Below, one piece after another: positions 3,437 to 62,075 of a stretch of 64,000 nt of DNA. The stretch is from an uncultured Candidatus Bathyarchaeia archaeon (GTDB lineage: Archaea > Thermoproteota > Bathyarchaeia > 40CM-2-53-6 > DTGE01), in the NCBI GenBank assembly GCA_964489085.1, contig CAZAXO010000001.1, positions 1,483 through 65,482 of the forward strand, given 5' to 3'. Numbering within the stretch: the first letter of the stretch is position 1; every line of letters begins with the position of its first letter. A model generated the notes under the pieces. The model made no database searches, was not told the origin of the DNA, and saw only the letters and a program-made list of their open reading frames with translations. Both the position numbers and the translations under genes were made by a program.

Positions 3437-4465
3437 TTACGCAGCAATATCCGAGTATTTAGTAAAAAGTCCTAAGTTATCGTCGTCTTGTGGGACGACA
3501 ATTCTCCCACTGTCAACATCCGAAATTGATATATTAGTACCAAACTCCATTTCAAATGGAAGGGTGTAATCGTTATATTTGAACTGAATGACCTGAGTAA
3601 ATACAAAGTAGATCTTATCACCAGAAATAATTACTTCAACTGGATAATCTGTGTAGAAATCAGTAATACTACAGTTAACTTGGTTAACGTTACCGTCCGT
3701 AGTGCTTACGGTATCGTTAAAATCGATCATTAATGCAAAAGCATTAGTAATTCGTTCCAATGTGTCATCGTATTTCTTTTGAGTGTCTACTGCTGGATCG
3801 TATGTTGGCGCTTGACAACGCCAAAATCGTTCGTCGTATAATTCTCGTAACTCCGTAGCATCCATATCATTTACGTCAGATTGCTCAATGTCCCAACCAC
3901 CACTTCCGGCATGAGCATTAGTCGTAGTGCTTTGTGGAACACTCATAATAAACGTAAAATTACCATTAGTCTGATAACTACCCATAGTAACTTCGTCGTT
4001 TGTGCTGGTTAACATATTAAAATTTAGGTCAGACGATTGATGGTAAACGTAAATAGTGTATTGCCCGTTTCCACTAAACAAGTGAAAGTTATTGGCAAAT
4101 ACCGTATCTCCGTCTGGGTCAATTTCGACCCAGAAGTAGGAATGTGCCGAAAGATCCTCAGAAACATCCTCCGCGTCGTCGGACGCCACCTCTTCTTCGA
4201 AATTCGTAGACAAATATGTTACATCTTCGAATTCCTCAATAGAGTCAGACTCTTCTGGTACCCATATAGAAATGGGTACAAAATCCGATACGTCTTCTCC
4301 GTCAACATAGGAAATAACCGTAAACGTAGAAGTTGTCGGAGTAGTAGTCGTTGTAGGTGCAGCAGCCCATAAACCAGCCATATTACCAACAAGGAAAAAC
4401 ACCAACATCCCAGAAACAGCCACAATGATAACAAGGAGTATTGCTTGCGATTTTTTTAATCTCAT
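3437..4465 (-). CDS. secreted protein with Thr-rich linker
   Basis: 342 aa. N-terminal TM/signal, then a TTTTTPTTST tract and acidic segments. Confidence 0.5.
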   Translation of the reverse strand: MRLKKSQAILLVIIVAVSGMLVFFLVGNMAGLWAAAPTTTTTPTTSTFTVISYVDGEDVSDFVPISIWVPEESDSIEEFEDVTYLSTNFEEEVASDDAEDVSEDLSAHSYFWVEIDPDGDTVFANNFHLFSGNGQYTIYVYHQSSDLNFNMLTSTNDEVTMGSYQTNGNFTFIMSVPQSTTTNAHAGSGGWDIEQSDVNDMDATELRELYDERFWRCQAPTYDPAVDTQKKYDDTLERITNAFALMIDFNDTVSTTDGNVNQVNCSITDFYTDYPVEVIISGDKIYFVFTQVIQFKYNDYTLPFEMEFGTNISISDVDSGRIVVPQDDDNLGLFTKYSDIAA

Positions 4466-4768
4466 AATATTTTTTAATTCTCCATATTTTTTACGTTAGA
4501 TCTTTAATATAATTTAAACAGGTATAATATATAAATCTAATTAAAATCGCGATGTAAACACAGAATATAATATAGTAACATAAACTTATTATAAGTCAAA
4601 AATACAATATATGGAGTTTAGCATTTTTAGGAATAAATTATAATATGCTTTAAATCCGAAGAAAAAATCAAAAAATAAAGTACATTAAAATCATATAATT
4701 TGATTTGAAAAAATCAATATAAAAATATAAAATAGAATAAAGAAAAAGAAAAAAAAATAGTTTTTAAA

Positions 4769-12616: not shown

Positions 12617-12643
12617 ACTTTTCTAATCACTTTTTTTATTTTA

Positions 12644-12682
12644 TTTATATAAATATAAACAATTATCATATTTAAATATATA
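12644..12682 (-). promoter_or_regulatory. conserved TATA-rich promoter-like element (copy 1)
   Basis: TTTATATAAATATA(A)ACAATTATCATATTTAAATATAT lies 28 bp upstream of the 12616 start. A second copy at 18887..18925 matches in all but 2 positions. Confidence 0.45.
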
Positions 12683-15970: not shown

Positions 15971-16776
15971 AAAACACGTTTCATCCTGTTAAACTCTTTT
16001 AACATTCCCTCCAACTCTTTTTTATATAAACTCTTTCCTGTTTTGACGTATTTATACATTTTACTTAAATACCATTTAAAATTTAACATATCAATCTCAC
16101 TAATTCTATTCACATTACCTCCAGTAAACAATTTAACTAATGATTCACTCTTTGTAGGCCCTACACCACTAATTCTATTTGAAACTATGGTTGGATCCCG
16201 TATATTCGATATATCTCTTATTGTATAATATTTCCTAGCTTTTTTCGATAAATTATATCCCCAACCTTCGGCACAAGATATAGCACCTATCTCTCTATCA
16301 TCGGTAGATGCTATTGGTTTATATAATTTAGTAAAATCTATGGTACCAGTAGAATGTTTAAGTATAGATACAATCATATAGGCAGATTCCTCCTTATTGG
16401 CAGAATGGTAAATACTGACACCATACTTAGTCATTAGTGAACCAAGGGCTCCAAGTTTACTCTCGGTACTCATTTGGGAAAAGACGTTATTTATATCCCC
16501 TTCTATTAAGATGATAACACGACTAAACCCATTTTCATACATCTCTATGACCTGTCTAAATAATCTACCATCGGCAATAGAAGAAACATAATCATCTTTG
16601 CTTTTTCTTTCTATTCCAACATTTCCAACTTTAGAGTCCTCACCCCTAATAATATAATCGCATACAGGGAAATGAGAAGAAAATACTCTACATTTAATAT
16701 TATATTGAGAAATATTGATTCTTAAATACCTAATCATAATAGATGGTTCTCTATTATCCACACCAAGTTCCATCAT
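15967..16776 (-). CDS. ERCC4-type (XPF/Hef/Mus81-like) structure-specific nuclease
   Basis: ERCC4 signature GIERKSKDDYVSSIADGRLFRQ. The start overlaps the helicase stop by 4 nt. Confidence 0.6.
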   Translation of the reverse strand: MMELGVDNREPSIMIRYLRINISQYNIKCRVFSSHFPVCDYIIRGEDSKVGNVGIERKSKDDYVSSIADGRLFRQVIEMYENGFSRVIILIEGDINNVFSQMSTESKLGALGSLMTKYGVSIYHSANKEESAYMIVSILKHSTGTIDFTKLYKPIASTDDREIGAISCAEGWGYNLSKKARKYYTIRDISNIRDPTIVSNRISGVGPTKSESLVKLFTGGNVNRISEIDMLNFKWYLSKMYKYVKTGKSLYKKELEGMLKEFNRMKRVL

Positions 16777-18884
16777 AAAAATACTGCAGCTCCCTTTTTA
16801 ATTTCCATTATACTATCAGTCTTTAAACCTATAATTTCAGATAATTTAGAAACTGATGTAGAAATGAATTTTTCAACCGAGTCAATATTTCTACTTAATA
16901 GTGAACTTAATCGTTTCTCACCAATACCTTTCAATTTAGCTAACTCTATGATACCACCCGTTATGATACCATGTTTAGCCCCTATTAGTAAGTCAGTTAA
17001 TTCCTGCTTGTAATCTCTAAATAGAATCGAAGAAATAGATAAGAAACGTTCAGAAGCACCAAGTACAGTATACTTATCACCCGAACTGAAGGTGAAATTC
17101 TTTTTAACTTTATTTATTTCTTTGTTAAGTTTGCCTATTTCGTTAGCTATTGTATATTGATCATATTTTTCTACATATTCTACTTTCCGTTCTAACTCAT
17201 CTATCCTATCTTGATATTCCGTCGTTTCTTTCATTATTAATTCTTTATGATAAGTAAGAGCAAAAATTTTCATTATATTACCAGAAAAATCTATATACTT
17301 ATCCATTATTTTATACCCAAAATGTCTGGTTATTTCCTGTCTTGGTTTAATAAAATCTATGGCATAATCTATCTTAGTTTGATCGTTATCATAAGCTACC
17401 ACTATGGATGCATATTCTGGAGCACTGGCTATTAAACAGAATAATTCTCCATTGGTCAAATCTTCCTTTTTATACAACACTCTCTCCCAGTGAACAACCG
17501 TTTCCGGTTGTATTGAATACTTTGAAGTCATTCTGCCCTTAAAGGTAGGTACCAATCTATCACCATTAGTATGAACAAATCTGTGTTTCGTTAACCAATT
17601 CAACTCACTTACTAATAAATCTCTAGTTATAGTATTATCCATAAGGAAATTTTCTATTAAAGAAAACTTATCAACATCGGTCACTATCTCAGAAACCACC
17701 CATCCAAGTTCGTATTTCTTAAGGTAGTTCCTCAACTTTGACTCAACCAAAAGTGGTCTTTTCATATGCTCAAGTACTTCCTCCTTTTCAGACTCAGCAC
17801 AAAAAACGAAAGCATATCCCATTTTGGAAAAACCAGGTCGTCCAGCCCGACCCATACTTTGTTCTAAACGGTCTTTTTCAATTAGTTGTCTACCAAGTAA
17901 ATATGAATACTGATACATATCGAACATTACGACTATATCAGCAGGTAAATTTACTCCCATTGCTAATGTGGGAGTAGCAGCAACTATGTTAATTCTACCA
18001 CTTCTGAACATATCTTCAACTTTGTCTTTTTCCTCAACCGACATACCAGCATTATGCCAACCCATTTTATAAGTGTATAATGCTTCATTTAATTTAATAT
18101 TATTATTATGAGTAAGTTCGGATATTACACCCCTAGTTCTGGATCTTGAAGTCGTAAATATGAGAATTTTCTTATCTGGAAATTTAACAATAATTTTACG
18201 GATAATATCGACTCTCGCCTTTATATCCAACCAATAATTATAGTTTTTGCGATATGTCATAACGTATTTTTTCAATGGTACAGGTCGTTCGTCTTTACCA
18301 GCACTTATTAACGACATTTTTAAATCATCGGAAAATTTTACCGGATTATCAATAGTAGCAGATAAACCAACGATTTGACAATCAGGAAATAAAACTCTAG
18401 TCATTATCACATCACATTCCACTATACCACCTCGTGACTCATCACCGTAGTTATGAACCTCATCTATAACTACTAGTCCGAGATTAGAAAAGATTGTACG
18501 TTTATTCACATCATTAAGAATAACATAAAACCTCTCATATGTAAGTATAGCAATATTCCAATCACCGTACTCATCTATTTCCTTCCTGTTATCACCATCA
18601 TCTAAGATAATTCTACTTTTTGGAAAATATTTCTTCAACTCAGCGGTTTGCTCCTTAGTTAAAACTTTCAATGGTGACAATAAAACTGCTCGTTTTCCAA
18701 CACTTAAAGTCTTAGCTATTGCCATAATAGCAATAGGTGTCTTACCATAACCCGTAGGTAAGACAGTAATGAAATTTTTCCGCTCATTAATTAAAGGTAT
18801 AGCCTCCTCTTGACGAGGTCTAAGCATAAACGGAAATGATAACCCATAAACCTTAGCGACACTCATATTTCTTTTGACCTCCAA
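16773..18884 (-). CDS. SF2 DEVH-box helicase (Hef/Hel308-like) with C-terminal HhH
   Basis: Walker A LPTGYGKT, VIDEVHNYGD, motif VI SMGRAGRPG and a C-terminal LAKLKGIGEKR helix-hairpin-helix. Confidence 0.75.
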   Translation of the reverse strand: MEVKRNMSVAKVYGLSFPFMLRPRQEEAIPLINERKNFITVLPTGYGKTPIAIMAIAKTLSVGKRAVLLSPLKVLTKEQTAELKKYFPKSRIILDDGDNRKEIDEYGDWNIAILTYERFYVILNDVNKRTIFSNLGLVVIDEVHNYGDESRGGIVECDVIMTRVLFPDCQIVGLSATIDNPVKFSDDLKMSLISAGKDERPVPLKKYVMTYRKNYNYWLDIKARVDIIRKIIVKFPDKKILIFTTSRSRTRGVISELTHNNNIKLNEALYTYKMGWHNAGMSVEEKDKVEDMFRSGRINIVAATPTLAMGVNLPADIVVMFDMYQYSYLLGRQLIEKDRLEQSMGRAGRPGFSKMGYAFVFCAESEKEEVLEHMKRPLLVESKLRNYLKKYELGWVVSEIVTDVDKFSLIENFLMDNTITRDLLVSELNWLTKHRFVHTNGDRLVPTFKGRMTSKYSIQPETVVHWERVLYKKEDLTNGELFCLIASAPEYASIVVAYDNDQTKIDYAIDFIKPRQEITRHFGYKIMDKYIDFSGNIMKIFALTYHKELIMKETTEYQDRIDELERKVEYVEKYDQYTIANEIGKLNKEINKVKKNFTFSSGDKYTVLGASERFLSISSILFRDYKQELTDLLIGAKHGIITGGIIELAKLKGIGEKRLSSLLSRNIDSVEKFISTSVSKLSEIIGLKTDSIMEIKKGAAVFL

Positions 18885-18886
18885 AA

Positions 18887-18925
18887 CTTTTTTATTTTTA
18901 TATAAATATAGACAATTATCATATT
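18887..18925 (-). promoter_or_regulatory. conserved TATA-rich promoter-like element (copy 2)
   Basis: Matches 12644..12682 in all but 2 of 39 positions. It sits directly upstream of the helicase gene and contains the palindromic ATATTTAAATAT. Confidence 0.45.
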
Positions 18926-18958
18926 TAAATATATGTTATGATTATACATATATTGAAC

Positions 18959-22635: not shown

Positions 22636-23952
22636 CTAAATGATATTTCTAAAATAGTCGGAACATCTCTGTATACAACGTATAGCATTTCTAATTATGA
22701 CTCCATTAACATTAAATTCACGAGATGAGAGTTCAAACTCAATTTTATTAAAATTCTTCAACTTTTCTTCATTACAACAATATTTCTCATTAATCCATAA
22801 TAAGTATTTTTTTTCATTTTCAGTGGCATCACAAAAACACAATCCACAGGTAGTACATTTCATAAGACCACATTTTTTACAGAAAGTTTTAATAGAAGAT
22901 GCTATAGTTATTGGGCTTCCACAGAACCAACAAATATGATCTTCAGATTCTTTTATTTCTCTGTTTCTTGCCCTAACACACTGTTTTAATCCAGTATCAT
23001 AAAAATTGACGTTTTTACCTCCCTTATGCATAACTTCTAACCTCGTTAATTTTTCTAAATCGTAATAGCAAGAAAGGTAACATCCATTACATTCCTCAAT
23101 TCTTTCTTTAAAAATCTTAACGTACCATTCAAATCCATACTTCTCTATACTACGGTTTAAATCGAATATATTAAAATCAAATGGCACCATATCCTCACAG
23201 GGCATAATCATGAGGTCGTTATTTACTACTAATCTATAAGGATAACTACAATGCCAACTCATATCCATAAATTTTGGTATATTTCTAATATATTCTTTTG
23301 TATTATGAATCAGAAGTTTATCATAATTATATAAAACATTCTTAACATCATCTATTATTCTATATTTCAGACGCGAATCGTTAATAGAAATAGTAGAATC
23401 GTAGTTTCCCATCAGACAATGTTTTCTATCGTCTGTACTATAATTATATACAGCAACTATAGTCCACACTTTTAGGCTGGTAAAATATCTGATAGTATCA
23501 AATAATTTTCCAATAGTCTTTTCTTCGTATAATAGATTTATGGAAACATCATCAAAATATTTTCTATATATATCAAACTTATCCTTAAAACCTTTGTAGG
23601 AATCTACACTTATAGTTATATTCTTAAGACCAGATTCACTCAACCTCATAGCAATAGATTCACTTAACTTACTACCATTAGTAACTATAGTGAAATCCAT
23701 TCCCAATGTATCACTGAGATATCCTATGACATCGTATATATGTTCATATTCCAATGGTTCACCCCCCATGATAACAATAAATTCAGACAAATTACTCATT
23801 ATTTCCAACGCATTTATAATATCTATAAAATTAGCATCCTTAGTCTTAAGAGATTTGGAAGAACAAAAAGGACAGTCATAACTACAATTTCTATTTGATA
23901 TAAACAAACAAGATTTAAACATCTTCTCTTTCATTCTAATTTTTTCTACCAT
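22636..23952 (-). CDS. radical SAM enzyme with C-terminal Cys-rich SPASM/twitch-like domain
   Basis: CSYDCPFC (Cx3Cx2C) at residues 23-30, a VIMGGEPLEY glycine-rich motif, and C-terminal CNGCYLSC...CWFCGSP...CKKCGLMKCTTCGLCFC. Confidence 0.6.
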   Translation of the reverse strand: MVEKIRMKEKMFKSCLFISNRNCSYDCPFCSSKSLKTKDANFIDIINALEIMSNLSEFIVIMGGEPLEYEHIYDVIGYLSDTLGMDFTIVTNGSKLSESIAMRLSESGLKNITISVDSYKGFKDKFDIYRKYFDDVSINLLYEEKTIGKLFDTIRYFTSLKVWTIVAVYNYSTDDRKHCLMGNYDSTISINDSRLKYRIIDDVKNVLYNYDKLLIHNTKEYIRNIPKFMDMSWHCSYPYRLVVNNDLMIMPCEDMVPFDFNIFDLNRSIEKYGFEWYVKIFKERIEECNGCYLSCYYDLEKLTRLEVMHKGGKNVNFYDTGLKQCVRARNREIKESEDHICWFCGSPITIASSIKTFCKKCGLMKCTTCGLCFCDATENEKKYLLWINEKYCCNEEKLKNFNKIEFELSSREFNVNGVIIRNAIRCIQRCSDYFRNII

Positions 23953-30108: not shown

Positions 30109-30580
30109 TTTTTAAATACTCCAATCCGAAAGTGAACCCTGAATTATTTCACTTAATTTGTTAATACCAACACTACCTTCCAATTTTAAGAAAGTAAACG
30201 TCAAAACCTCCCAAATAAGTTTGTTATCACCAGCCCTCTGTAACAACTCAGAAGCTAACTTACCACATTCACTATTTTGAATACCGGATAATTGTTCATC
30301 CCCTATAATTTCCTATCTCCTTTTATCTACATAACTAATATACGACCCATAATCTACTCCTATAGATAAAAACATAGTAATCCAACTAATAATGGCAACA
30401 ACAAAGACAGTAATTTAAACCGTAGAGTCATAGAAAACACTAACTGGAATAAGTACAAAAGTAAATGTAATAGTAATTATAAAAAACAATCCTCCAATAA
30501 GATCTAACCTATTTTCTAATTTTTTGTACTTATCTAATTCAATATTATCACTCATGTTCTATTCCCTCCCACTTCTTTTA

Positions 30581-31648: not shown

Positions 31649-32599
31649 TTAAAATTCAAATAGTGTCGTCTGTTTTTCGTTAACAGATAATTTCCTAAGT
31701 TTACCGATTCCATTCTCCACCCTAACCCTAGAAAATCCATTTTTCTCATATAAAAACTCAAATAATTTTTCAAAGTCTGGTTTCTTCCTTGTTAGTTTAT
31801 AATTAGTATTTACATTAGGATTTAAATACATTCCCATAAGCCTATGATATAAATCGAAAAATTCTCCGTTTTTAAGCATCTTACCAGTTTTACATTCTAT
31901 CATAGCCTTATCAATAAAAGGAGCCTTAAATATATCATCATACTCCGTCACTGCCTTTACCGCCGTGTTAACACCAACCCCCTTTATACCAGAAAAATAA
32001 TCATTACCAGATAATATGGCAATAGATATAAGATCTTCACGTTTCAATCTTTTGTCATTCAAAACCTTAGCCAAAGAAATGAATTCTATTTTGTCTGCTT
32101 TCATAGCCAAATTTCTAACCAAACGTTTACCACCAAATAAGAGTATATCGAAGTCCTGACTACAAGCACAAAAGGCTTGATCTTTCATTGTTAGATAAGC
32201 ACATTGGGCATCACCTTCACTCGGAGATTGAATAGATTGTATACCCATTAAATCTAACAACTCTTTACCAGATTCTATTACCTTATCGGTAATATGTATC
32301 AAATCCTTATTTTTCTGTCTATACCACCTAAGTTTAGTTATCTTTTCATTACCGTCAAAACAGTAAATAGGTCTAATATCGTGTTCCAATAATTTTAAAT
32401 TTCTATAAAACAACCCAGATAAATGTGACGTAATATCACCACCGTAATTCATAAGGGGTTTTCCGTCAGAACCCCTTATGGCATGTAGGAATTGATAAAT
32501 AACGTTAAAAGCATCTACACTAACAGTCCTATTTATCAAACTACCCATTGTCAAGTCTCGTTTAGTAGACTCAGTCAAAACACCTATACCACTACCCAT
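31649..32599 (-). CDS. fen: flap endonuclease FEN-1 (XPG family)
   Basis: XPG-N GDITSHLSGLFYRNLKLLEHDIRPIYCFDG and XPG-I SPSEGDAQCAYL...SQDFDILLFGG, with an HhH-like region. Confidence 0.8.
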   Translation of the reverse strand: MGSGIGVLTESTKRDLTMGSLINRTVSVDAFNVIYQFLHAIRGSDGKPLMNYGGDITSHLSGLFYRNLKLLEHDIRPIYCFDGNEKITKLRWYRQKNKDLIHITDKVIESGKELLDLMGIQSIQSPSEGDAQCAYLTMKDQAFCACSQDFDILLFGGKRLVRNLAMKADKIEFISLAKVLNDKRLKREDLISIAILSGNDYFSGIKGVGVNTAVKAVTEYDDIFKAPFIDKAMIECKTGKMLKNGEFFDLYHRLMGMYLNPNVNTNYKLTRKKPDFEKLFEFLYEKNGFSRVRVENGIGKLRKLSVNEKQTTLFEF

Positions 32600-33829: not shown

Positions 33830-34141
33830 TTAAAACATCCAATCCCCAGTAAATTCGTATTCATCTAAATCATTTAAGAAATTCTTCTCAGGTATTTTAT
33901 CGATGTTTTTAGCAAATGTTTCACCAGAAAAAACTAATTTCCACTTTGGATATTTCCTAGGGTTTTTCCTAAGTGAACTTAACAACTTCTCTTTATTCCT
34001 AATCGTATTAATATATCCTTTAGAAAAAGGAATATTATCTTCGTCACCGTAGCGCTTTACCAATTCATCCCATATCTCCTGTTCAATCTTAGTTAACTTT
34101 TCATCATACCAACCAAATGTTCCCCTTCCCATATTTACCAC
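33830..34141 (-). CDS. small protein of the C-terminal (F/Y)TGDW family
   Basis: Ends in YEFTGDWMF. Paralogs at 58817..59122 and 59859..60140. Confidence 0.35.
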   Translation of the reverse strand: MVNMGRGTFGWYDEKLTKIEQEIWDELVKRYGDEDNIPFSKGYINTIRNKEKLLSSLRKNPRKYPKWKLVFSGETFAKNIDKIPEKNFLNDLDEYEFTGDWMF

Positions 34142-34459
34142 CTACCAGAATCCACTAAGGGATAGTTCCTTCAAACAGTTTTTGATTGTTCTACCAGTTA
34201 TTTTTTCTTTTTCATTAGTTGATCGAACCCAAACACTTCCATTGAAATAAAATCTAAGTTCTGGCTGTTCATTAGGATGCTCATCAATCCATTTAATTAT
34301 ACGATCTATATCGGCGTTATACAAATCACTCTCAGTAAACGGTGGCTTCCCCTTATATCTTTTTTTAAGTAAACCAAAAGCATAACTTATTTTTGCCGTG
34401 TATTTCATATTTTCAGAAATTTTTCTTGCTGCCATAATCATCAACCGTTTTATATCCAA
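34142..34459 (-). CDS. hypothetical protein
   Basis: 105-aa ORF. Confidence 0.3.
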   Translation of the reverse strand: MDIKRLMIMAARKISENMKYTAKISYAFGLLKKRYKGKPPFTESDLYNADIDRIIKWIDEHPNEQPELRFYFNGSVWVRSTNEKEKITGRTIKNCLKELSLSGFW

Positions 34460-37181: not shown

Positions 37182-37805
37182 TTTTATCCAAAACCTTCAT
37201 GTAAATATAATTTTATTATATTATAATATAATTTTCAAAATTTATAAATCTTTTTTGATGTAGTAAAAAAAGATTTTTTTTAAATGTTTAAAAACAACCG
37301 ATTTTCAAGTTATGTTTATCTTTATAATTAACTAATATCTGACTCTTTTATTCATTATATTTCATATAAAATTCTAAATAAATATATTGATATTCCTTTT
37401 TAATGATTATATTAATTTATTTCAAATAGTATTGTACCTAAGAAAATATGTTTAAGTTTTTTTATTTTAATATTGGTATTGTTTTTTGATTACATTTTTA
37501 TCATAATATATAGTCTGTTAATGTGTATATATAAAAAACTTTTGGAGATATAAAAACATTTATAAACAATTGATATCTTAGCGTTTTTCGAATTTTGGAA
37601 ATAAATCTATTATATTACTATATTTAATATTTATATTTCTAAAATTAATTAATTAAATATAAGGGGTTTTTTTCTTTGAGTAAGTATTTATGATAAGTAT
37701 TTAATATATACACATATTTGATGTTGTATATTTTGGAGAATCTACTTGGAAATAGACATATAAAATCATTTGAATTAAAATTAAAAATTATTATGTATTT
37801 TTAAG

Positions 37806-38914: not shown

Positions 38915-41617
38915 CTATACTAATGCTTGTAACTCTGTATCTTGAAATATATCTAAATATTGTATACCTAATTCTTTTAACGATGTTTCTAATGGAGATA
39001 AAGTCTTTTTTATTAATCTGTCGTAATCTATGGCTTCTATTACATCATCCGGTAGGTAATCTTCGTCATCTAAGGCTACTTTATCTGTTTTGGCATATTT
39101 AGGTGGTATTTTATTTTCGTCTGTATAAATAAAATGTATAATTGAGTTCTTTCCAAGATTACTTAGACCATCCCATAAATAAGCCCACTGATTTGTCCAT
39201 CTTGCTGCGTCAATATGTTCTACTTTTGATAAGACTTTTCTACCTGTTTTTTTATCTATTCTAAAATACTCGTCAAATCTTTTTGTTGCGGTAACTCTAA
39301 TACAGAGATCCTTTATTGGATATTTACCGGATATTATTTTATTAATTTCCTTTCTTATATATGATTTTATTAGTTTTATTATTTCTCTGTCAGATTTATC
39401 TTCATGTATTATAGATTGTACTTTCTTTATTATTTTATTTCCGACTATAGGTATATTACTCTTTATGTGACCGGTAATTTCTATTTCTGGTTCTTTTAAT
39501 ATAATAGATTTATTTAATATAAACTTTACTATAACTCCTTCACTATATTTCTTTTTTGCTCCAGTGTCATCACTACCTTTTATTCTAACCATAAAATAGG
39601 TCGAAGATATGGTTTCTGGTCTAATAAACAACCTATTTATTTTTAGGTTGAATTTATTCGTTACATATGTTTTATAGAAATGGTTTAGTCTCTTTTCTAT
39701 TTTTCTGCTTTCTTTTATCATATCTTCTGCTGACTTACTTTTTAATTGTATTTTTAATGAATCGGTATCTCCATATATTACTTTTATACCCATATGTATT
39801 AGTAATTTCTTTCCATTTATCATCATAAATCTTGCTGTTACTGTGATAGTCTCAGCTATTACTTCGTTAAATAATCTCCAGTTTTCATTTCCGAATATGC
39901 CGTATATAGTATTTGTTAAATATTTTATTACTGTTTGAGTATCATTAGTTAATTGAATTTCAAACTCCAGTTCTATTATTATTGTTTTGTTACCTTTTTC
40001 TTTTTCTTTTTTCACTTTTTCTTCTAGTTTAAATAACTCTTCTTTTATATTATCTCTATATTCTATTAGCTCTAGTAAACAGCTTGCTATTAGTGATGTT
40101 TTGTCCCGTCTGAAGTATGTATTATTTGGTGTGCTTATATAATCATACGGTAAATTTTTTAATTCTTTTTCGGTCAAATCTTTTCCTATGTATGTATCAA
40201 ATCCTATATTGAATGAAATCATTATCATCGGATATAGTGATTTGAAATCAAATGAACATACTTTTCTTGAACGACCGAAAACTGCTGTGTCTACATATCC
40301 TCCTATATATCCTATTTTCTCTCGTTCTCTTGCTGATGGTAATACTATATTTCTATTCTTAGCCTTAACCAATAGTAATTGATCTATTACTTGCAAATTA
40401 GATAATATATTTTCATAGTTGACACCAGTCATACCTCGTATTCCACTAAAGTATTGTTCTTGTCTCAATTTCTCGTAAATTTCATAATCTATAAGGGTAT
40501 CTATAGCATTATAATAAACTAATAATTTTAATTTATTCTTATATGCTGTATTGAATGAACATCCTAATTTTATTTTTCCATATTTTATTACTGCTAGTCC
40601 GGCATTACCTAGACTTCCACTGACTGTTTTTGTTTGTCTACTCAGATATGCATCTCTTGTATCAAATAGTATTTGACCTTTTATTACATATTCGTTAGTA
40701 TAGTTGTTCAAATATACTGCGTTTAGAGGTGAAAGAGAGAAGTAATCTAGTCTTTTAGTTCTTGTTTTTTCATTGGTTATTTGTCTATTTAATACTTTCA
40801 TTCTGTTTATCATGTATGGAATATCGAATTTTTTTATGTTCCATCCCCATATTCCATCTCCGTTCGTATATTTATGGTATTTCAGGAACCCTCTGAACAT
40901 ATCTACTTCTTTATTATATATATGTATTATCCACTTGTATTTTTTACCGTGTGGATTTACTAATGATACGTGTTTTGTTATTTCATCGTTTTTGGATTTT
41001 ACTAATCCTTTTTTAAATACGAAGGTATTTGATGTTTTTGTAAACGAATCTATTACATTTATTACCGTTACTGGTTTTAGTGCTTTATCAACATCTGGTA
41101 TTTTATTTCCTTCTTCTGTTAGGGTTTCAATATCTAAATGTAGTCGTCTTTTATTGATGAAGAAGTTACATGGTTTTATTAACGAGTAATGTATCTTTCT
41201 TTTTCCAATTGGTACAGATATTCCATTTAGTACGTTAGCATCTATTTGAACTCGTATTTTATATGGTATATCATCTTCGTAACATTCTTCTGTTGGAAAG
41301 TAATCTCTTATACCGTGTGTCTTATTTGCTATACCGCTTACATCTGTTGAATTCCGTACGTATATTTTTTTTAATGGTAAACCATCATAGGATCTATATT
41401 TTCGTTTTGTCTTCTTGTTTTGTTTTTCTATTTTTACTATTCTATCATCTGTAGGTGGTGTACCTTCGTTACTAGTATAAAAATATGGTATGTGACCATG
41501 TGTAGTTATCATATGTTTCTTTTTATTTTTGTCTCTACCAAACCAGAATACTAACTCCCCTTTACCTTTTATTGATTTCTTTTCTACTAAATGAATAGAC
41601 AAATCCATACGTTCCAT
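38915..41617 (-). CDS. polB: family-B DNA polymerase
   Basis: Exo I LHLDIET, motif A DFKSLYPMIM, motif B KYLTNTIYGIFG and motif C YGDTDS. Length 900 aa. Confidence 0.9.
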   Translation of the reverse strand: MERMDLSIHLVEKKSIKGKGELVFWFGRDKNKKKHMITTHGHIPYFYTSNEGTPPTDDRIVKIEKQNKKTKRKYRSYDGLPLKKIYVRNSTDVSGIANKTHGIRDYFPTEECYEDDIPYKIRVQIDANVLNGISVPIGKRKIHYSLIKPCNFFINKRRLHLDIETLTEEGNKIPDVDKALKPVTVINVIDSFTKTSNTFVFKKGLVKSKNDEITKHVSLVNPHGKKYKWIIHIYNKEVDMFRGFLKYHKYTNGDGIWGWNIKKFDIPYMINRMKVLNRQITNEKTRTKRLDYFSLSPLNAVYLNNYTNEYVIKGQILFDTRDAYLSRQTKTVSGSLGNAGLAVIKYGKIKLGCSFNTAYKNKLKLLVYYNAIDTLIDYEIYEKLRQEQYFSGIRGMTGVNYENILSNLQVIDQLLLVKAKNRNIVLPSAREREKIGYIGGYVDTAVFGRSRKVCSFDFKSLYPMIMISFNIGFDTYIGKDLTEKELKNLPYDYISTPNNTYFRRDKTSLIASCLLELIEYRDNIKEELFKLEEKVKKEKEKGNKTIIIELEFEIQLTNDTQTVIKYLTNTIYGIFGNENWRLFNEVIAETITVTARFMMINGKKLLIHMGIKVIYGDTDSLKIQLKSKSAEDMIKESRKIEKRLNHFYKTYVTNKFNLKINRLFIRPETISSTYFMVRIKGSDDTGAKKKYSEGVIVKFILNKSIILKEPEIEITGHIKSNIPIVGNKIIKKVQSIIHEDKSDREIIKLIKSYIRKEINKIISGKYPIKDLCIRVTATKRFDEYFRIDKKTGRKVLSKVEHIDAARWTNQWAYLWDGLSNLGKNSIIHFIYTDENKIPPKYAKTDKVALDDEDYLPDDVIEAIDYDRLIKKTLSPLETSLKELGIQYLDIFQDTELQALV

Positions 41618-41665
41618 ATGGGTGGTAAGGGATTCGAACCCTTATACATGCCTGTACATTCTACC
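41618..41665 (-). ncRNA. tRNA-like 3-prime minihelix (T-arm plus acceptor, no D/anticodon arms)
   Basis: The minus-strand sequence reads GGGTAGA-ATGTACAGGCATGTAT-AAGGGTTCGAATCCCTT-ACCACCC-A. It has a canonical GGTTCGAATCC T-loop/stem and a 7-nt acceptor strand, and it ends 1 nt before the polB ATG. Confidence 0.35.
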
Positions 41666-41697
41666 CTTAATATAAAAAAAATAAAAATATTATTAGA

Positions 41698-47099: not shown

Positions 47100-48059
47100 T
47101 TGGATGAAGTTAACGTTTTGTTAATGGAAAAATATAGGAGTAGTGATTTTTCTGATGGTGCGTTATTGGGTCAAGATAGGATATTGAGGTCGTGTAGAAA
47201 TTTTGTTAAGAAGGGTGAAATACCACATCTTATATTATCTGGACCTGCCGGTACCGGAAAAACAACTACTGCTTTGGCTTTGGCTTTACGTATTAGTGGA
47301 CCTGCTAATACTAAAATACTTAATGCGAGTGATGAAAATAGTATTAAGGTTATACGAGGACCAGTTAAAGAATTTATTATGGCTGATTCTGATTTGTCGG
47401 ATATATTAAAGACTCTGATATTGGATGAAAGTGATAATATGTCATCTAAGGCTCAACAGGGACTTCGTAGAATGATAGAAGAACATAGTGATTCTTTTAG
47501 GCTTATTATGACGTGTAATTATATAAACCAGATTATAGATCCCATTGTATCTAGGTGTGTAAATTTGGTATATAGACCTATTCCTAAGATTTTAGTTGTT
47601 AACAGATTAAAAAAGGTTGCTAAAGCTGAATCTATTAAAATTACTAAGAAACAACTTAATATAGTTGCTACTGTGTTTAGGGGTGATATGCGTAAGTGTT
47701 ATAATATTTTAGATTCTATTCGTCTTGGTGCTGATTTTGGTGCATTAATAAATGAAATAAGTCCCGTTACTTATTTTAAGTTAATATTATCTAACAATAT
47801 AGTCGGTATTAAGGATTATATTGATAAAAATATATTTAGTAAGTATGATATGAAATATTTGATTGATTTGTGTATAGATTTGATTGTTAGATTAATTAAA
47901 TCTGATAAAGTTAACGATAAAAGTAAATTTAGTTTGTCTAATGCTAAACATTTGGTTGGTCTTTTGACCGAGGCAGATTATAGGTTGTCTATTGGTTCTG
48001 AATATTCTGCTGTAGCCTTCTGGATAGCTGTAAAGTATAATAATTTGGTGTTATTATAA
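47100..48059 (+). CDS. rfc: replication factor C small-subunit-like clamp loader (AAA+)
   Basis: Walker A LSGPAGTGKTTTALALA, Walker B ILDESDNM, and the RFC-specific SRC motif (IDPIVSRC). Confidence 0.75.
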   Translation: MDEVNVLLMEKYRSSDFSDGALLGQDRILRSCRNFVKKGEIPHLILSGPAGTGKTTTALALALRISGPANTKILNASDENSIKVIRGPVKEFIMADSDLSDILKTLILDESDNMSSKAQQGLRRMIEEHSDSFRLIMTCNYINQIIDPIVSRCVNLVYRPIPKILVVNRLKKVAKAESIKITKKQLNIVATVFRGDMRKCYNILDSIRLGADFGALINEISPVTYFKLILSNNIVGIKDYIDKNIFSKYDMKYLIDLCIDLIVRLIKSDKVNDKSKFSLSNAKHLVGLLTEADYRLSIGSEYSAVAFWIAVKYNNLVLL

Positions 48060-50928: not shown

Positions 50929-51387
50929 TTAAAATTTATGGTATTGTATTTTATCTAAGCCAGTTTGTTCTAGGAAGTTTTCATAACTGTGAAATATCAT
51001 ACCAGCCTTTTCTCCTATGTCCTTTGAATAATCCATACATCTACGGAGTACGAGTTTTTTAAATATATCTCTGGCTGGTTTGTTCTTTTGTTTTACCTCC
51101 TCTGGTACGTCCATCCTTAATACCATCATTAATTGTGTTATGAACGGGAATTCCAATGTACATCTTCCTGAAAACTCTATTTTTCCTACATCTGGTAGTA
51201 TCTCTAGTTTGAAGTCGAAGAAGCCGAACGCTTCCTTTGAGTTTAGATATACTAAATTTTTTGTTTGTAGTGTGTAATTATACTCTACATTGGGTTTTGG
51301 ATTATCCATCCAAACATTCACTTTTGGATTGATAAAAACGAAGTTTTTTAATCTAATGAAACTATCTATTTTTTTAAATGTTGGCAT
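50929..51387 (-). CDS. hypothetical protein
   Basis: 152-aa ORF. Confidence 0.35.
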   Translation of the reverse strand: MPTFKKIDSFIRLKNFVFINPKVNVWMDNPKPNVEYNYTLQTKNLVYLNSKEAFGFFDFKLEILPDVGKIEFSGRCTLEFPFITQLMMVLRMDVPEEVKQKNKPARDIFKKLVLRRCMDYSKDIGEKAGMIFHSYENFLEQTGLDKIQYHKF

Positions 51388-57732: not shown

Positions 57733-58059
57733 TTAGTTTATAAATAAATGATATATATTCTTATTTCCTTTCTTAGATTTTAAAACTTTTTCTCTTCCTA
57801 CTTTGGAGCCGGTTCTACATGAATATACTTTTATTACATTGTTTAAATGTTTTTTATTATAGAGAGATCCACAATAAATTCCATATTTAGAATATTTTTT
57901 TTTTGTTCCAACGCCATATATGAAATATTCGTTATCATACTCGTCTGCTTGTAAGATGATTTCTTTTTTGAGTTCCTTTAACGATATTTTTTTTTGTCGT
58001 TTGAGTATCTTTTGTCTATCTTCTTCTTTATTTTTTATTACCTCTTTTATGGTTCCCAA
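57733..58059 (-). CDS. hypothetical basic protein
   Basis: 108-aa Lys-rich ORF. Confidence 0.3.
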   Translation of the reverse strand: MGTIKEVIKNKEEDRQKILKRQKKISLKELKKEIILQADEYDNEYFIYGVGTKKKYSKYGIYCGSLYNKKHLNNVIKVYSCRTGSKVGREKVLKSKKGNKNIYHLFIN

Positions 58060-58271
58060 GTTCCATCATCGGATAGGTTACTTATATTGTCAGCTCTATT
58101 GCAGAGATGCTCTAATAGATTGTTAATTCTTTTATTTAGTTTAATTATTTGTTCAACGATATTTTTATCTCGTTTATATTTAAATACTTTCTTAAGTATT
58201 CTAAATGAACTATTTAAATCCACGCTTTGTGTTGTTGCTCTTATTATAAACTTCTGAGCACTTCTTACCAT
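58047..58271 (-). CDS. small protein, paralog of 33575..33796
   Basis: FKYKRDKNIV...DDGTWEP. Confidence 0.35.
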   Translation of the reverse strand: MVRSAQKFIIRATTQSVDLNSSFRILKKVFKYKRDKNIVEQIIKLNKRINNLLEHLCNRADNISNLSDDGTWEP

Positions 58272-58370
58272 AGTGAAATATTCTCCATTGGTTAATTACT
58301 TTTTTGTAGGAATTCTATTATATTAATAATACTGGGGATTATATATAAAACTTTTTGATTTCCTGTTCTG

Positions 58371-58494
58371 AGAATTCCAATGTACTCCCCCTACCTTCCC
58401 TTTTTTTAGGGTAGTATTACTCCGGTTGTATACGTAAATGTAGAGTGTCAGCGACCAGAGTCAGTACCCGTCAGTAAATGTACATTGGAATTCT
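58371..58494. repeat. 15-bp perfect inverted repeat (AGAATTCCAATGTAC / GTACATTGGAATTCT) flanking a 94-bp GC-richer core
   Basis: Arms at 58371..58385 and 58480..58494. The core contains the CCCTA..TAGGG hairpin and three GTCAG repeats. It lies in a 545-bp ORF-free region. Confidence 0.5.
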
Positions 58495-58816
58495 TGAGAT
58501 TATCTATTTTTTTATAAATATGAACACACATTAATCTTATAGCGTGATTGTCATATCGATCGTGAAACTACTTCTCAAATTATTACTATATAATTTTGCG
58601 GGAAAAAATTATAATGTTATAATTTTCTGTATGTATATATATTATAGTAATATATTACATTATTGATATTATTATGATAGAAATAGTTGGGGTATGTACT
58701 GTCATCTATATAACGGTGGTATATAGACTATAATCCTATAATTATAAGGTTATAATTTATGGTTACAATAAAAAAAATATAATTGAGAATAAATAAGTTA
58801 TATCTTTAGTAGAAAA

Positions 58817-59122
58817 TTATTCTAATCTCCAATCTCCGGTAAACTCTACGTTATCTTCGATAAAATCAGGACATTCAAAATAATATTTATGTTCTTCGTT
58901 GGTTAATATCCATATTTTTTCTTCTACTTTAAATAGAAATTTTGGAAATCTTGTTACTCTTGGATTTTTTAGTGTTGATATGAGTTTTCTTTTATTTTTT
59001 ATACGTTTTATGTTATAATTTTCTAATACTAGTTTTCCACCGTATCCATACTCTTTTGCTTTTAGAATTAATAATTCCTTTAACTCTTCCTCTAATTTTG
59101 TTAATTGAGACATTTTATTCAC
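58817..59122 (-). CDS. small protein of the C-terminal (F/Y)TGDW family
   Basis: Ends in VEFTGDWRLE. Confidence 0.35.
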   Translation of the reverse strand: MNKMSQLTKLEEELKELLILKAKEYGYGGKLVLENYNIKRIKNKRKLISTLKNPRVTRFPKFLFKVEEKIWILTNEEHKYYFECPDFIEDNVEFTGDWRLE

Positions 59123-59571
59123 CTAATATCTATCCATCCACTTCCCAAACAATTTGGACATAATCTTTTTCCTTCTCCATTTGAATCTATAAAACCCTTT
59201 TCGGGGATTAGTCCCTTACCATCACATACAGGACAAGAAGGATCGAATTTTACAATTATACCTCCTTTATTTAATAATTTATAAATCTCATTTTGTATTC
59301 TATTGTAACTTATTTCAAACATATGATAACTAGCAAGAATACCATCGAAGTGGAAATGATAATCTAGATGTATGTCTCTTCCGGTGATATATTTACTACA
59401 ATCTTGTACCATCACTTTATCTTTACATGAAAATTTTCTTATTTCTTTTGCTACCATTTCTATTGGTTCCAATAGATCCCCTAATTTCTCTATTGCAGAG
59501 ACCAATAATTTTTTGTTTAACTTATTTTCTTTCGAAAGTTTACTCTTTAGTTTCGTTATCACAAGATTCAT
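59119..59571 (-). CDS. protein with C-terminal CxxCxGxG zinc-finger repeats
   Basis: CPVCDGKG...CPNCLGSG, a DnaJ-type zinc-finger pattern. Confidence 0.35.
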   Translation of the reverse strand: MNLVITKLKSKLSKENKLNKKLLVSAIEKLGDLLEPIEMVAKEIRKFSCKDKVMVQDCSKYITGRDIHLDYHFHFDGILASYHMFEISYNRIQNEIYKLLNKGGIIVKFDPSCPVCDGKGLIPEKGFIDSNGEGKRLCPNCLGSGWIDIR

Positions 59572-59858: not shown

Positions 59859-60140
59859 TTACCTTTTATAGATTCTCCATTTACCTGTGAAATATAGGTG
59901 ATCTTCTATTTTTTCTTCTTGTACTATCGATGTCAGTCCGACCGGAGATAATATTTGAAATGTAGAAGGATATAACGCGTATATAAAGACAACTCGTTTA
60001 CTTTTTCTCCATTTATCTTCTAGAAATTCAAGTAACTTCTTTTTATCCTTTAGTTTCTTGAAATCTTCGTTAGATAATGGACAACCGTGTCTATCTTCCA
60101 ATAATCCCTTTATTCTTTCATCTAAACTAGATAAACTCAT
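59859..60140 (-). CDS. small protein of the C-terminal (F/Y)TGDW family
   Basis: Ends in LYFTGKWRIYKR. Confidence 0.3.
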   Translation of the reverse strand: MSLSSLDERIKGLLEDRHGCPLSNEDFKKLKDKKKLLEFLEDKWRKSKRVVFIYALYPSTFQILSPVGLTSIVQEEKIEDHLYFTGKWRIYKR

Positions 60141-61130: not shown

Positions 61131-61703
61131 TTAATTTATTCCTAACTTTTTCATATTTGTTTGTACTGTGGAGTCAGAACTACCTGATAAACAACTTTTA
61201 CATATTATATACATAGTATTTTCTACTACGTTATATGCTCCACTTATTTCTCCTACCGACTCAAATTCTATTATTTCACCACATCTACAACAGCTTGTAA
61301 CTACGCGTATATTTTTATGTCTTTTTGCTTCTATTATTTCTGATGGACATATTGCTTCGTCAGCACCAGTTATTACGTGTTTATAATACGGTTTGTTGCA
61401 TTTTGGACATATATCATTTAATTTGTATTTACCCACTGTATCAGAGATAGGATTATAGATGTAGAGTTCAAGTGCATCTAATAACTCTTTATTATATTTG
61501 TCTTCTAGTTCTTTTATGGTAGATTCCATAAATGATTTACTAAAGAAATCATACCCATCTAGAGCTCTATTTAAAAGTTTTGACATTGTATCCTTTAGAG
61601 CATCCAATTTACCATATATGGTAGTAAAATTTACTCTTATTGTATTATTTACCAGATTTAATATTTTTGTTTCGAATTCTTCTAAGTTATTCATATTTCT
61701 CAC
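61131..61703 (-). CDS. Cys-rich zinc-binding protein
   Basis: CPKCNKPYY...CPSE...CCRCGE...CKSC. Confidence 0.35.
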   Translation of the reverse strand: MRNMNNLEEFETKILNLVNNTIRVNFTTIYGKLDALKDTMSKLLNRALDGYDFFSKSFMESTIKELEDKYNKELLDALELYIYNPISDTVGKYKLNDICPKCNKPYYKHVITGADEAICPSEIIEAKRHKNIRVVTSCCRCGEIIEFESVGEISGAYNVVENTMYIICKSCLSGSSDSTVQTNMKKLGIN

Positions 61704-61884
61704 TTAATTTTTTGGTTATATATCTACAATGTATGTTTACGTTATTTATAACATTATTACGTTTCATCTACTTTCATAATTGTAAACTTTAACATTGTAA
61801 AATTTTTTATAATTTTTAAATAAATTTCCAAAAATATAAATTTTGATTTTTTCATCTAATTCCTGTAGAACTACTTTTTATGGT

Positions 61885-62035
61885 ATTATGAAAAAACATA
61901 ATATATTATGGAATTTCATAATATTTATAAGGTAAAATTATGTTTTTTCATAATATATTTAAATCAGTATTATGTAAACTCATAATATTTATAAATTGAT
62001 ATTATGTAAGAACATAATATTTAAATATGTTAATT
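61885..62035. promoter_or_regulatory. array of about five palindromic CATAATAT / ATATTATG iterons in a divergent intergenic region
   Basis: Elements seen: cataatatattatg (a perfect 14-bp palindrome), attatg-N6-cataatat, tattatg-N6-cataatat and atattatg-N6-cataatat. The region lies between minus-strand and plus-strand gene blocks. Confidence 0.5.
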
Positions 62036-62075
62036 GTTTATATTTATATAAAAATAAAAAAATTTGGAGGTCAAA

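Follow-up and report, generated by a model that had tools for sequence, protein, structure and literature searches.

A single-copy inverted-repeat unit in a possible transcriptional boundary region of an orphan virus with archaeal-type replication genes

What is the large non-coding gap at positions 58272-58816 of this 64-kb stretch of DNA (the window, as the whole stretch is called here), and what might be the role of the inverted repeat within it? The genome is that of an orphan virus of about 70 kb, with 29.6% GC and archaeal-type replication genes. The gap is 545 bp long and separates two minus-strand genes, one of 101 aa at 58817-59122 and one of 74 aa at 58047-58271, within a long series of small minus-strand genes that occupies 50.4-61.7 kb. 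We found that the hairpin element in the gap, an inverted-repeat unit, is real and statistically solid and that it fits no known class, while the spacer around it is otherwise ordinary-looking. The reading that we favour, at a probability of roughly 40%, is that the gap would be a boundary and control region where one leftward (minus-strand) transcription unit of the virus gives way to the next, with the inverted-repeat unit acting in cis.

The preliminary description of this DNA had called the gap free of open reading frames (ORFs), and it is: reassigning any one stop codon leaves every frame closed, a tblastx comparison with the remainder of the genome reveals no decayed gene or paralogue in it, and it is the second-largest ORF-free gap in the window. 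The perfect 15-bp inverted repeat that had been described there is also exactly as reported. One arm, AGAATTCCAATGTAC, occupies 58371-58385; the other, at 58480-58494, is its exact reverse complement, and the two match at all 15 positions across a spacer of 94 nt. The stem can be extended to 58367-58499 with one bulge, giving 19 pairs, so that the unit measures 124 bp between the outer ends of the arms and 133 bp with the extended stem. The dinucleotide TG stands directly outside both ends. In 60 simulations of the window under a first-order Markov model, perfect repeats 15 bp or longer, with loops no greater than 200 nt, arose at a rate of 0.07 per 64 kb, and none of the 60 simulations produced one with at least five G/C in the arm. 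The inverted repeat is thus far beyond chance. The arm motif shows no genome-wide over-representation. We also observed a 16-nt exact copy of the arm, GAATTCCAATGTACAT, at 51148-51163 inside the ORF 50929-51387; by base composition the chance of such a copy is about 1e-4, and no wider homology was found around it.

Between the arms, the core (58386-58479) has a GC content of 44.7%, compared with a mean of 29.6% for the window and 14-27% for the rest of the gap, which bears out the earlier claim of a GC-richer core. Ranked against all 94-nt windows it falls in the top 1.4%, and no other non-coding one is as high. The small hairpin that had been drawn as CCCTACC...TAGGGTAG is present and has three alternative pairings: CCCU 58398-58401 with AGGG 58408-58411, CTACCT 58391-58396 with GGGTAG 58409-58414, and, read directly from the sequence, CCCTA 58389-58393 with TAGGG 58407-58411. 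Three GTCAG repeats, also noted before, start at 58447, 58460 and 58470, with spacings of 13 and 10 bp; these are three copies in 28 nt (58447-58474), and the whole window holds 25.

The unit is also distinguished by its fold. The minimum free energy (MFE) of the whole unit is -45.2 kcal/mol on the plus strand (z = -5.4 to -6.0) and -40.1 kcal/mol on the minus strand (z = -3.3), and the fold is significant when the unit is treated as single-stranded DNA (z = -3.9). Of the 119 windows that cover all of the large intergenic gaps, none has a lower energy, and only one, a palindromic operator array at 61.9 kb, has a better z-score. The strands differ when the inner 94 nt are folded without the arms: on the plus strand z = -2.5, with 3 of 200 shuffles folding equally well, and on the minus strand z = +0.4, which is not significant. 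It is the four G-U pairs of the long hairpin (58414-58467) that give the plus strand its edge.

The absence of other copies, of the kind expected for a miniature inverted-repeat transposable element (MITE), had been set beforehand as a refuting test, and the unit proved to be single-copy: neither BLAST nor a covariance model built from the unit finds a second one in the window and the 4.5 kb beyond it (about 68.5 of the roughly 70 kb). Relatives were sought with scans for exact arms, which would miss arms that have diverged. A pattern of 14+14 nt matches nothing in 185,579 species genomes or the JGI metagenomes, and a pattern of 11+11 nt has none in IMG/VR. The shorter pattern has four metagenome matches, all of them unrelated clusters of a TTTCCAATGTA-like motif with cores that are not homologous to this one: two lie on a Firmicutes-like contig with PcsB/CHAP and choline-binding genes, one is in a satellite-like repeat and one is on a short contig. 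A Firmicutes-like contig that is unrelated to the virus, ODKX01000008.1, carries non-coding units of about 1 kb that are repeated several times, each with at least 10 copies of CTTTCCAATGTA in both orientations; these may be an iteron or binding-site array. Known RNA families were equally unrewarding. The check with Rfam and Infernal that had been proposed gives no family match to the unit; there are no matches at gathering thresholds in the whole window, the matches at E <=10 in 58000-59000 are at chance level (E = 1.1-8), and ARAGORN calls no tRNA or tmRNA gene.

Because the replication genes are archaeal-type, we read the regulatory signals around the unit by archaeal rules, with promoters composed of a B recognition element (BRE) and a TATA box and with oligo-T terminators. 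At the level of sequence, both kinds of signal are found. Sense-strand runs of at least seven T residues directly follow stop codons at many gene ends throughout the genome, and an intergenic motif family can be aligned to AAAAATTTATAAAT, which is the classical combination of a BRE and a TATA box. The gap has one perfect match to TTTAWATA, TTTATATA, which is found about 50 nt ahead of the Shine-Dalgarno sequence (SD) and ATG of the 74-aa gene and is probably the promoter of that gene. The simplest form of such a boundary is seen in the module at 33.6-34.1 kb, of which the genes on either side of the gap had been called a duplicate. That claim stands, since both flanking proteins match the adjacent pair there: the 74-aa protein is 35% identical to a 73-aa paralogue (E = 2e-9) and the 101-aa protein is 34% identical to one of 103 aa (E = 5e-8). 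The paralogous genes are separated by 33 bp, compared with 545 bp here, and their locus has a minimal boundary in which a stop codon, T9, T9 and AAAAATTTATAAAT are found in 115 bp. The gap under study is 430 bp longer than this minimum, and the excess corresponds to a set of operator-like boxes and the inverted-repeat unit.

The two strands differ in where their T runs lie. The minus strand is free of runs of five or longer between about 58600 and the 74-aa gene, and the plus strand has a T7 run in the core (58401-58407), another just past the unit (58507-58513), and T5 and T6 runs before it; for this reason long transcripts are to be expected on the minus strand. No site resembling a bacterial intrinsic terminator was found in 57900-59300, the T7 run beyond the unit beginning 13 nt past the stem. 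Two TATA-like boxes lie 20-25 bp outside the arms as mirror images of one another, and the starts that they predict for the two inward directions consequently fall on the ends of the stem.

Between the unit and the 101-aa gene the gap is very rich in A+T. The preliminary description had seen TATAAT-like iterons in this part, and a dense cluster is indeed there: the densest 50-bp cluster of TATAAT in the window is at 58729 (four copies) and the second densest is at 58589, both in the gap. Tandem Repeats Finder (TRF) gives only 2.5 copies of a 13-nt unit, and the heptamers are better described as an 18-bp palindromic box, AATTATAA-NN-TTATAATT, which occurs exactly at 58607-58624 and 58740-58757, 133 bp apart, and with two mismatches at 58578-58595. 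Exact copies are confined to the gap; one other match in the window, with two mismatches, lies in a different intergenic region. The same part of the gap holds a resemblance to the CRISPR-DR6 family, GTTACAATAAAAAAAATATAATTGAGAA at 58762-58789, with 16.7 bits (E = 2.6) and a TATAAT 5 nt upstream. We considered a solitary CRISPR repeat (an anti-CRISPR RNA) at this site and set it aside as most likely a chance match, as the gathering score of the family is 39.

From motifs of this kind we infer the terminator, promoter and operator functions, the transcribed strand and the role in cis of the reading that we favour. Read leftwards, the region would begin with the T8 oligo-T terminator, which would end the transcription unit that finishes with the 101-aa gene. 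There would follow a very AT-rich stretch of about 200 bp whose three palindromic boxes are probably distal promoters, operators for a dimeric DNA-binding protein, or both; then the palindromic TATA-like TTTATAAA and the single-copy inverted-repeat unit of 124-133 bp; and last the consensus BRE/TATA promoter and ribosome-binding site that would serve the 74-aa gene. The unit could act in either of two ways. Transcription of the minus strand from the distal TATA-like boxes may give a leader RNA in which the unit is a highly stable stem-loop, placed at the 5' end or close to it, with a role in stability, processing or attenuation. Alternatively, its arms may be two identical binding sites some 109 bp apart, a distance of about 10.4 helical turns that would put them on the same face of the helix, where they would flank and control the two mirror-image TATA boxes.

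A boundary and control region is favoured by the way in which the T runs are distributed, by the placement of the unit after a probable terminator and ahead of a consensus promoter, and by its fold, which no other non-coding stretch of the window surpasses in stability; in addition, no gene for a recombinase, reverse transcriptase, transposase or Orc1 came to light in the virus. A number of points weigh on the other side. All of the functional assignments are read from sequence motifs, and an archaeal host is likewise deduced from gene content. The distal TATA-like boxes are weak, having one or two mismatches and a poor upstream element, and no candidate binding protein was found. The lack of a significant minus-strand fold in the inner core favours a plus-strand RNA. 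For a leader hairpin, the perfect 15-bp repeat, the GC-rich core and the three GTCAG copies are more than would be required, and this reading does not account for the length of the gap beyond the minimal boundary of about 115 bp.

Table 1. Positions of the features in and beside the gap, listed from right to left
Feature	Position	Strand	Remarks
Upstream gene, 101 aa	58817..59122	-	Member of a four-member paralogue family ending ...F/L-T/S-G-x-W
T8 run	58770..58777	-	Follows the stop codon of the 101-aa gene by 39 nt; probably terminates the upstream unit (oligo-T)
Box O3 AATTATAAGGTTATAATT	58740..58757		Within the heptamer cluster 58727-58775; overlaps promoter-like TTGTAA-16-TATAAT, minus strand
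Box O2 AATTATAATGTTATAATT	58607..58624		133 bp from O3; overlaps promoter-like TATACA-18-TATAAT, minus strand
Degenerate box O1 AATTATTACTATATAATT	58578..58595		Two mismatches; 29 bp from O2
Most AT-rich part of the gap	58575..58699		14-19% GC; GC skew locally positive
T7 run 58507-58513 (+) overlapping palindromic TATA-like TTTATAAA 58511-58518	58507..58520		Mirror partner of the TATA box to the left of the repeat
Inverted-repeat unit	58367..58499		MFE -45.2 kcal/mol (+), -40.1 (-); single copy
GC-richer core	58386..58479		C/T-rich tract and T7 run, small hairpin, long imperfect hairpin, GTCAG x3
C/T-rich tract and T7 run	58386-58407	+	Inside the core
Small hairpin	58398-58411		Inside the core
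Long imperfect hairpin	58414-58467		Four G-U pairs on the plus strand
TATA consensus TTTATATA	58342..58356 (box 58349 to 58342)	-	Preceded by purine-rich AAAAAG; predicted start ~58320
Third copy of the arm octamer GGAATTCT	58309..58316		3 of the 15 EcoRI sites of the window lie within 184 bp here
Shine-Dalgarno GGAG	58283..58286	-	11 nt ahead of the 74-aa gene's ATG
Downstream gene, 74 aa	58047..58271	-	Structure model: two-helix hairpin, pLDDT (predicted local distance difference test) 73, modest confidence

The asymmetry of the inner core raises the question of whether the unit might instead be a gene for a structured RNA, as had been proposed. An independently transcribed RNA of about 130-140 nt, likely to come from the plus strand and so antisense to its neighbours, would pair its 5' and 3' ends over 19 bp, in a terminal stem closing a three-way junction, and it might act in trans, for example by pairing its C/U-rich tract UCCCCCUACCUUCCC with purine-rich ribosome-binding sites. 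In a variant of this proposal the product would be a C/U-rich RNA of about 35 nt that ends at the internal T7 run. The targets of an expressed RNA might be ribosome-binding sites of the host or the virus, or a host defence system. On the plus strand the fold is significant. The unit is a GC-rich island in an AT-rich genome with the lowest MFE of all intergenic windows (z = -6.0), the inner core is significant on that strand alone, and the four G-U pairs of the long hairpin, with one more in the terminal stem, become C-A mismatches on the other strand. The plus-strand TATA-like box at 58338-58347, about 26 nt before the stem, predicts a start at 58363-58369, at the outer end of the stem, and the T7 run that begins 13 nt past the stem lies at the other end. 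A T7 run would, however, terminate archaeal RNA polymerase, and the one at 58401-58407 lies about 30 nt into the RNA, where it should stop the enzyme. The plus-strand TATA box has a poor upstream element, GGGGA, which is not A-rich; a perfect 15-bp duplex is unusual for the stem of a functional RNA; there is no match to the tRNA and tmRNA models, nor to Rfam even at E <=10; and no homologue was found in which the stems could show covariation. We regard such an RNA as unlikely.

The composition of the unit would also fit an arrival from elsewhere. A MITE-like or otherwise foreign insertion, functional or not, would be a non-autonomous element of about 124 bp in an AT-rich spacer, and several features fit it: perfect 15-bp terminal inverted repeats, a suitable size, no ORF, and 42-45% GC compared with 20-25% in the surrounding spacer. 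To these can be added the TG at both ends, a possible 2-bp target duplication, and the mere 33 bp that the paralogous pair has at the equivalent position. The expectation of sister copies has failed, however. The unit occurs once in about 68.5 of the roughly 70 kb by BLAST and covariance model, no homologous copy was found by exact-arm patterns in the 185,579 species genomes, the JGI metagenomes or IMG/VR, and no transposase was found in the virus. A 2-bp match of TG is, by our own estimate, expected by chance about once in ten cases, and the 16-nt copy of the arm in one of the virus's own genes points to an internal and not a foreign origin. An insertion of this kind seems improbable to us, and that the unit is a palindrome without any function has only a slim chance of being correct.

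A virus that encodes its own replisome needs an origin, and the preliminary description had mentioned one as a further possibility. The arms and the three GTCAG copies, whose spacings of 13 and 10 bp are roughly one helical turn, would then be initiator sites, and the tract of 14-19% GC, the most AT-rich non-coding tract of the window, which the repeats adjoin, would be an unwinding element, possibly activated by transcription. The evidence does not bear this out. The core of the mini-ORB (a short form of the origin recognition box, ORB) of archaeal origins is TTCC...GAA in 13 bp, as in TTCCAGTGGAACT (PMC1904270). The arm reads TTCCAATGTAC, in which TTCC is present but TAC stands where the GAA of the TTCC-N4-GAA core is expected (PMC1904270). 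Neither Orc1/Cdc6 nor another initiator was detected when 92 ORFs were compared with Pfam, and the DNA between the arms, at 45% GC compared with 20-25% in the flanks, is not AT-richer but GC-richer. The cumulative skew keeps one regime over 50-61 kb and changes at 37.2-37.8 kb, and two divergent gaps, 45.4-45.7 kb and 61.7-62.1 kb, look no less like an origin. An origin at this site is very doubtful.

An invertible DNA switch, in which a site-specific recombinase would flip the 94-bp segment between the repeats, could account for the perfect identity of the arms, as expected if recombination keeps the sites identical, and for the mirror-image TATA-like boxes just outside them; yet no recombinase gene was detected in the virus, the core has no recognisable promoter or ORF, so that flipping it has no obvious effect, and the two available assemblies are identical, which leaves this proposal barely credible. 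A retron was set aside, as no reverse transcriptase was found beside the unit or among the ORFs of the window.

The genes on either side of the boundary region belong to families that seem to be private to the virus. The 101-aa, 74-aa and 330-aa proteins, the three nearest of appreciable size, find nothing except themselves among 5.8 billion proteins, and the structure model of the 74-aa protein has no evident DNA-binding fold. The family of about 100 aa ending F/L-T/S-G-x-W (58817-59122, 59859-60140, 33830-34141 and 34142-34459) forms, with the 73/74-aa pair, a duplicated early-gene module for which no homologues were found elsewhere.

The surrounding genome, with its archaeal-type replisome and 7-deazaguanine pathway, may be more interesting than the gap itself. 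Replication genes are found, for example, at 31649-32599, 47100-48059, 16773-18884 and 38915-41617. The virus encodes a FEN-1 that scores 280 bits against TIGR03674 and whose best matches in the PDB are all archaeal FEN-1s; no homologue was found among the phage records of INPHARED. An RFC small subunit (199 bits), a Hel308-like helicase, an ERCC4 nuclease (XPF) and an HVO_2753-type zinc finger are also encoded, and the closest matches of the PolB, with 23-25% identity, come from haloarchaeal tailed viruses. When 92 ORFs were scanned against Pfam, no Orc1/Cdc6, integrase/recombinase, transposase or reverse transcriptase was found. The window is identical to a Logan contig of run SRR14802572, and the two available assemblies do not differ. 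It has no nucleotide match in 50,697 phage records by megablast or blastn and none in 72,556 plasmids by blastn. In IMG/VR, no related locus was found through the 330-aa protein, a 150-aa protein matches on its zinc-finger motif only, and the PolB has a single match at 25% identity. Literature searches on the run accession and on the replication genes of magroviruses yielded nothing useful.

Several further observations concern the genome at large. A set of 7-deazaguanine (preQ0/archaeosine-type) genes, which includes 22636-23952, encodes GTP cyclohydrolase I, PTPS/QueD, QueC and radical-SAM enzymes, and a uracil-DNA glycosylase is encoded in the window too; together they suggest that the virus may modify its own DNA. 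Directly upstream of the start codon of PolB, on the minus strand, there is a tRNA-like fragment (41620-41672) with a D-loop-like GGGTAGA, a perfect T arm (AAGGG-TTCGAAT-CCCTT) and the 3' acceptor strand ACCACCCA. It scores only 14.5 bits with the Rfam tRNA model and is not called by ARAGORN. The 22-mer at its 3' end matches only tRNA-Val(TAC) genes of two bacterial metagenome-assembled genomes and is uninformative about the host.

Other intergenic regions carry features of their own. Between 61131-61703 on the minus strand and the plus-strand genes from 62076 is a divergent gap of 360 bp in which a palindromic box, TATTATG-N6-CATAATA, is found in five copies with a 32-bp period (61876-62031). 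This array has the strongest fold z-score of all intergenic windows and looks like a multi-operator genetic switch. A TrmB-family helix-turn-helix gene lies just past the end of the window (4407-4694 of the contig that extends beyond it). A 46-49-nt sequence, ATATTTAAATATGATAATTGTTTATATTTATATAAAAATAAAAA, occurs with 91-94% identity at 12634-12679 and 18884-18932 (direct) and at 62017-62065 (inverted), directly upstream of three genes, and is probably a strong promoter class that they share. A second promoter class, AAAAATTTATAAAT...TTATAAT, is seen at 33.5, 37.2, 45.6 and 52.4 kb. The largest ORF-free gap (37182-37805, 624 bp) marks a shift in strand composition and not in gene orientation: to its left the GC skew is about -0.3 and the AT skew about 0, and to its right they are about -0.1 and -0.27. 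This gap may mark the edge of a module or a landmark of replication. Finally, the 306 bp at 30109-30414 have no ORF of 45 aa or more and, unlike the other spacers, are not AT-rich; they may be a decayed or frameshifted gene.

To our knowledge, archaeal tailed viruses are poorly characterised and almost nothing has been reported about their non-coding elements. Proof that the inverted-repeat unit is expressed as RNA or works as a regulated switch would place it among the very few such elements described for these viruses. Its main practical value is as a candidate for transcript mapping, should the virus or its sample be studied again.

How does the unit compare with systems that are already understood? 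Like the msr-msd RNA of retrons, it has terminal repeats reminiscent of a1 and a2 that enclose a short and a long hairpin, but no reverse transcriptase was found beside it or in the window. Like ORB and mini-ORB origins, it has inverted repeats that contain TTCC and adjoin an AT-rich tract; unlike them, its arm lacks the GAA, no orc1/cdc6 gene was found, the DNA between the repeats is GC-richer and there is no change of skew. With MITEs it shares perfect terminal inverted repeats, a length of 124 bp, the lack of an ORF and a composition unlike that of its flanks, and it departs from them in being single-copy, with no convincing target duplication and no related transposase found in the virus. 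Structured RNAs reportedly form GC-rich islands in AT-rich archaeal genomes, a principle associated with Klein, Misulovin and Eddy (2002). The unit resembles such islands in being a local GC peak with a significant fold, a flanking TATA-like box and a T run, and differs from them in reaching only 45% GC, in its internal T7 run and in the lack of any family match or homologue in our searches.

The two remaining comparisons concern the reading of the gap as a boundary and control region. Hairpins in the 5' leaders of phage and bacterial mRNAs, such as the ompA leader and the RNase III sites of T7, act in stabilisation or processing. Like them, the unit has a long stable stem and lies in what would be a non-coding leader between viral transcription units; they are simple, whereas the stem of the unit closes a multi-branch core of 94 nt with repeats of its own. 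The likeness to archaeal operon boundaries lies in the succession of signals, with a T8 run after the stop codon and then TTTATATA, a purine-rich upstream element and an SD before the next gene. To a boundary that this genome elsewhere accommodates in a minimum of about 115 bp, the gap adds 430 bp and, with them, the palindromic boxes and the inverted-repeat unit.

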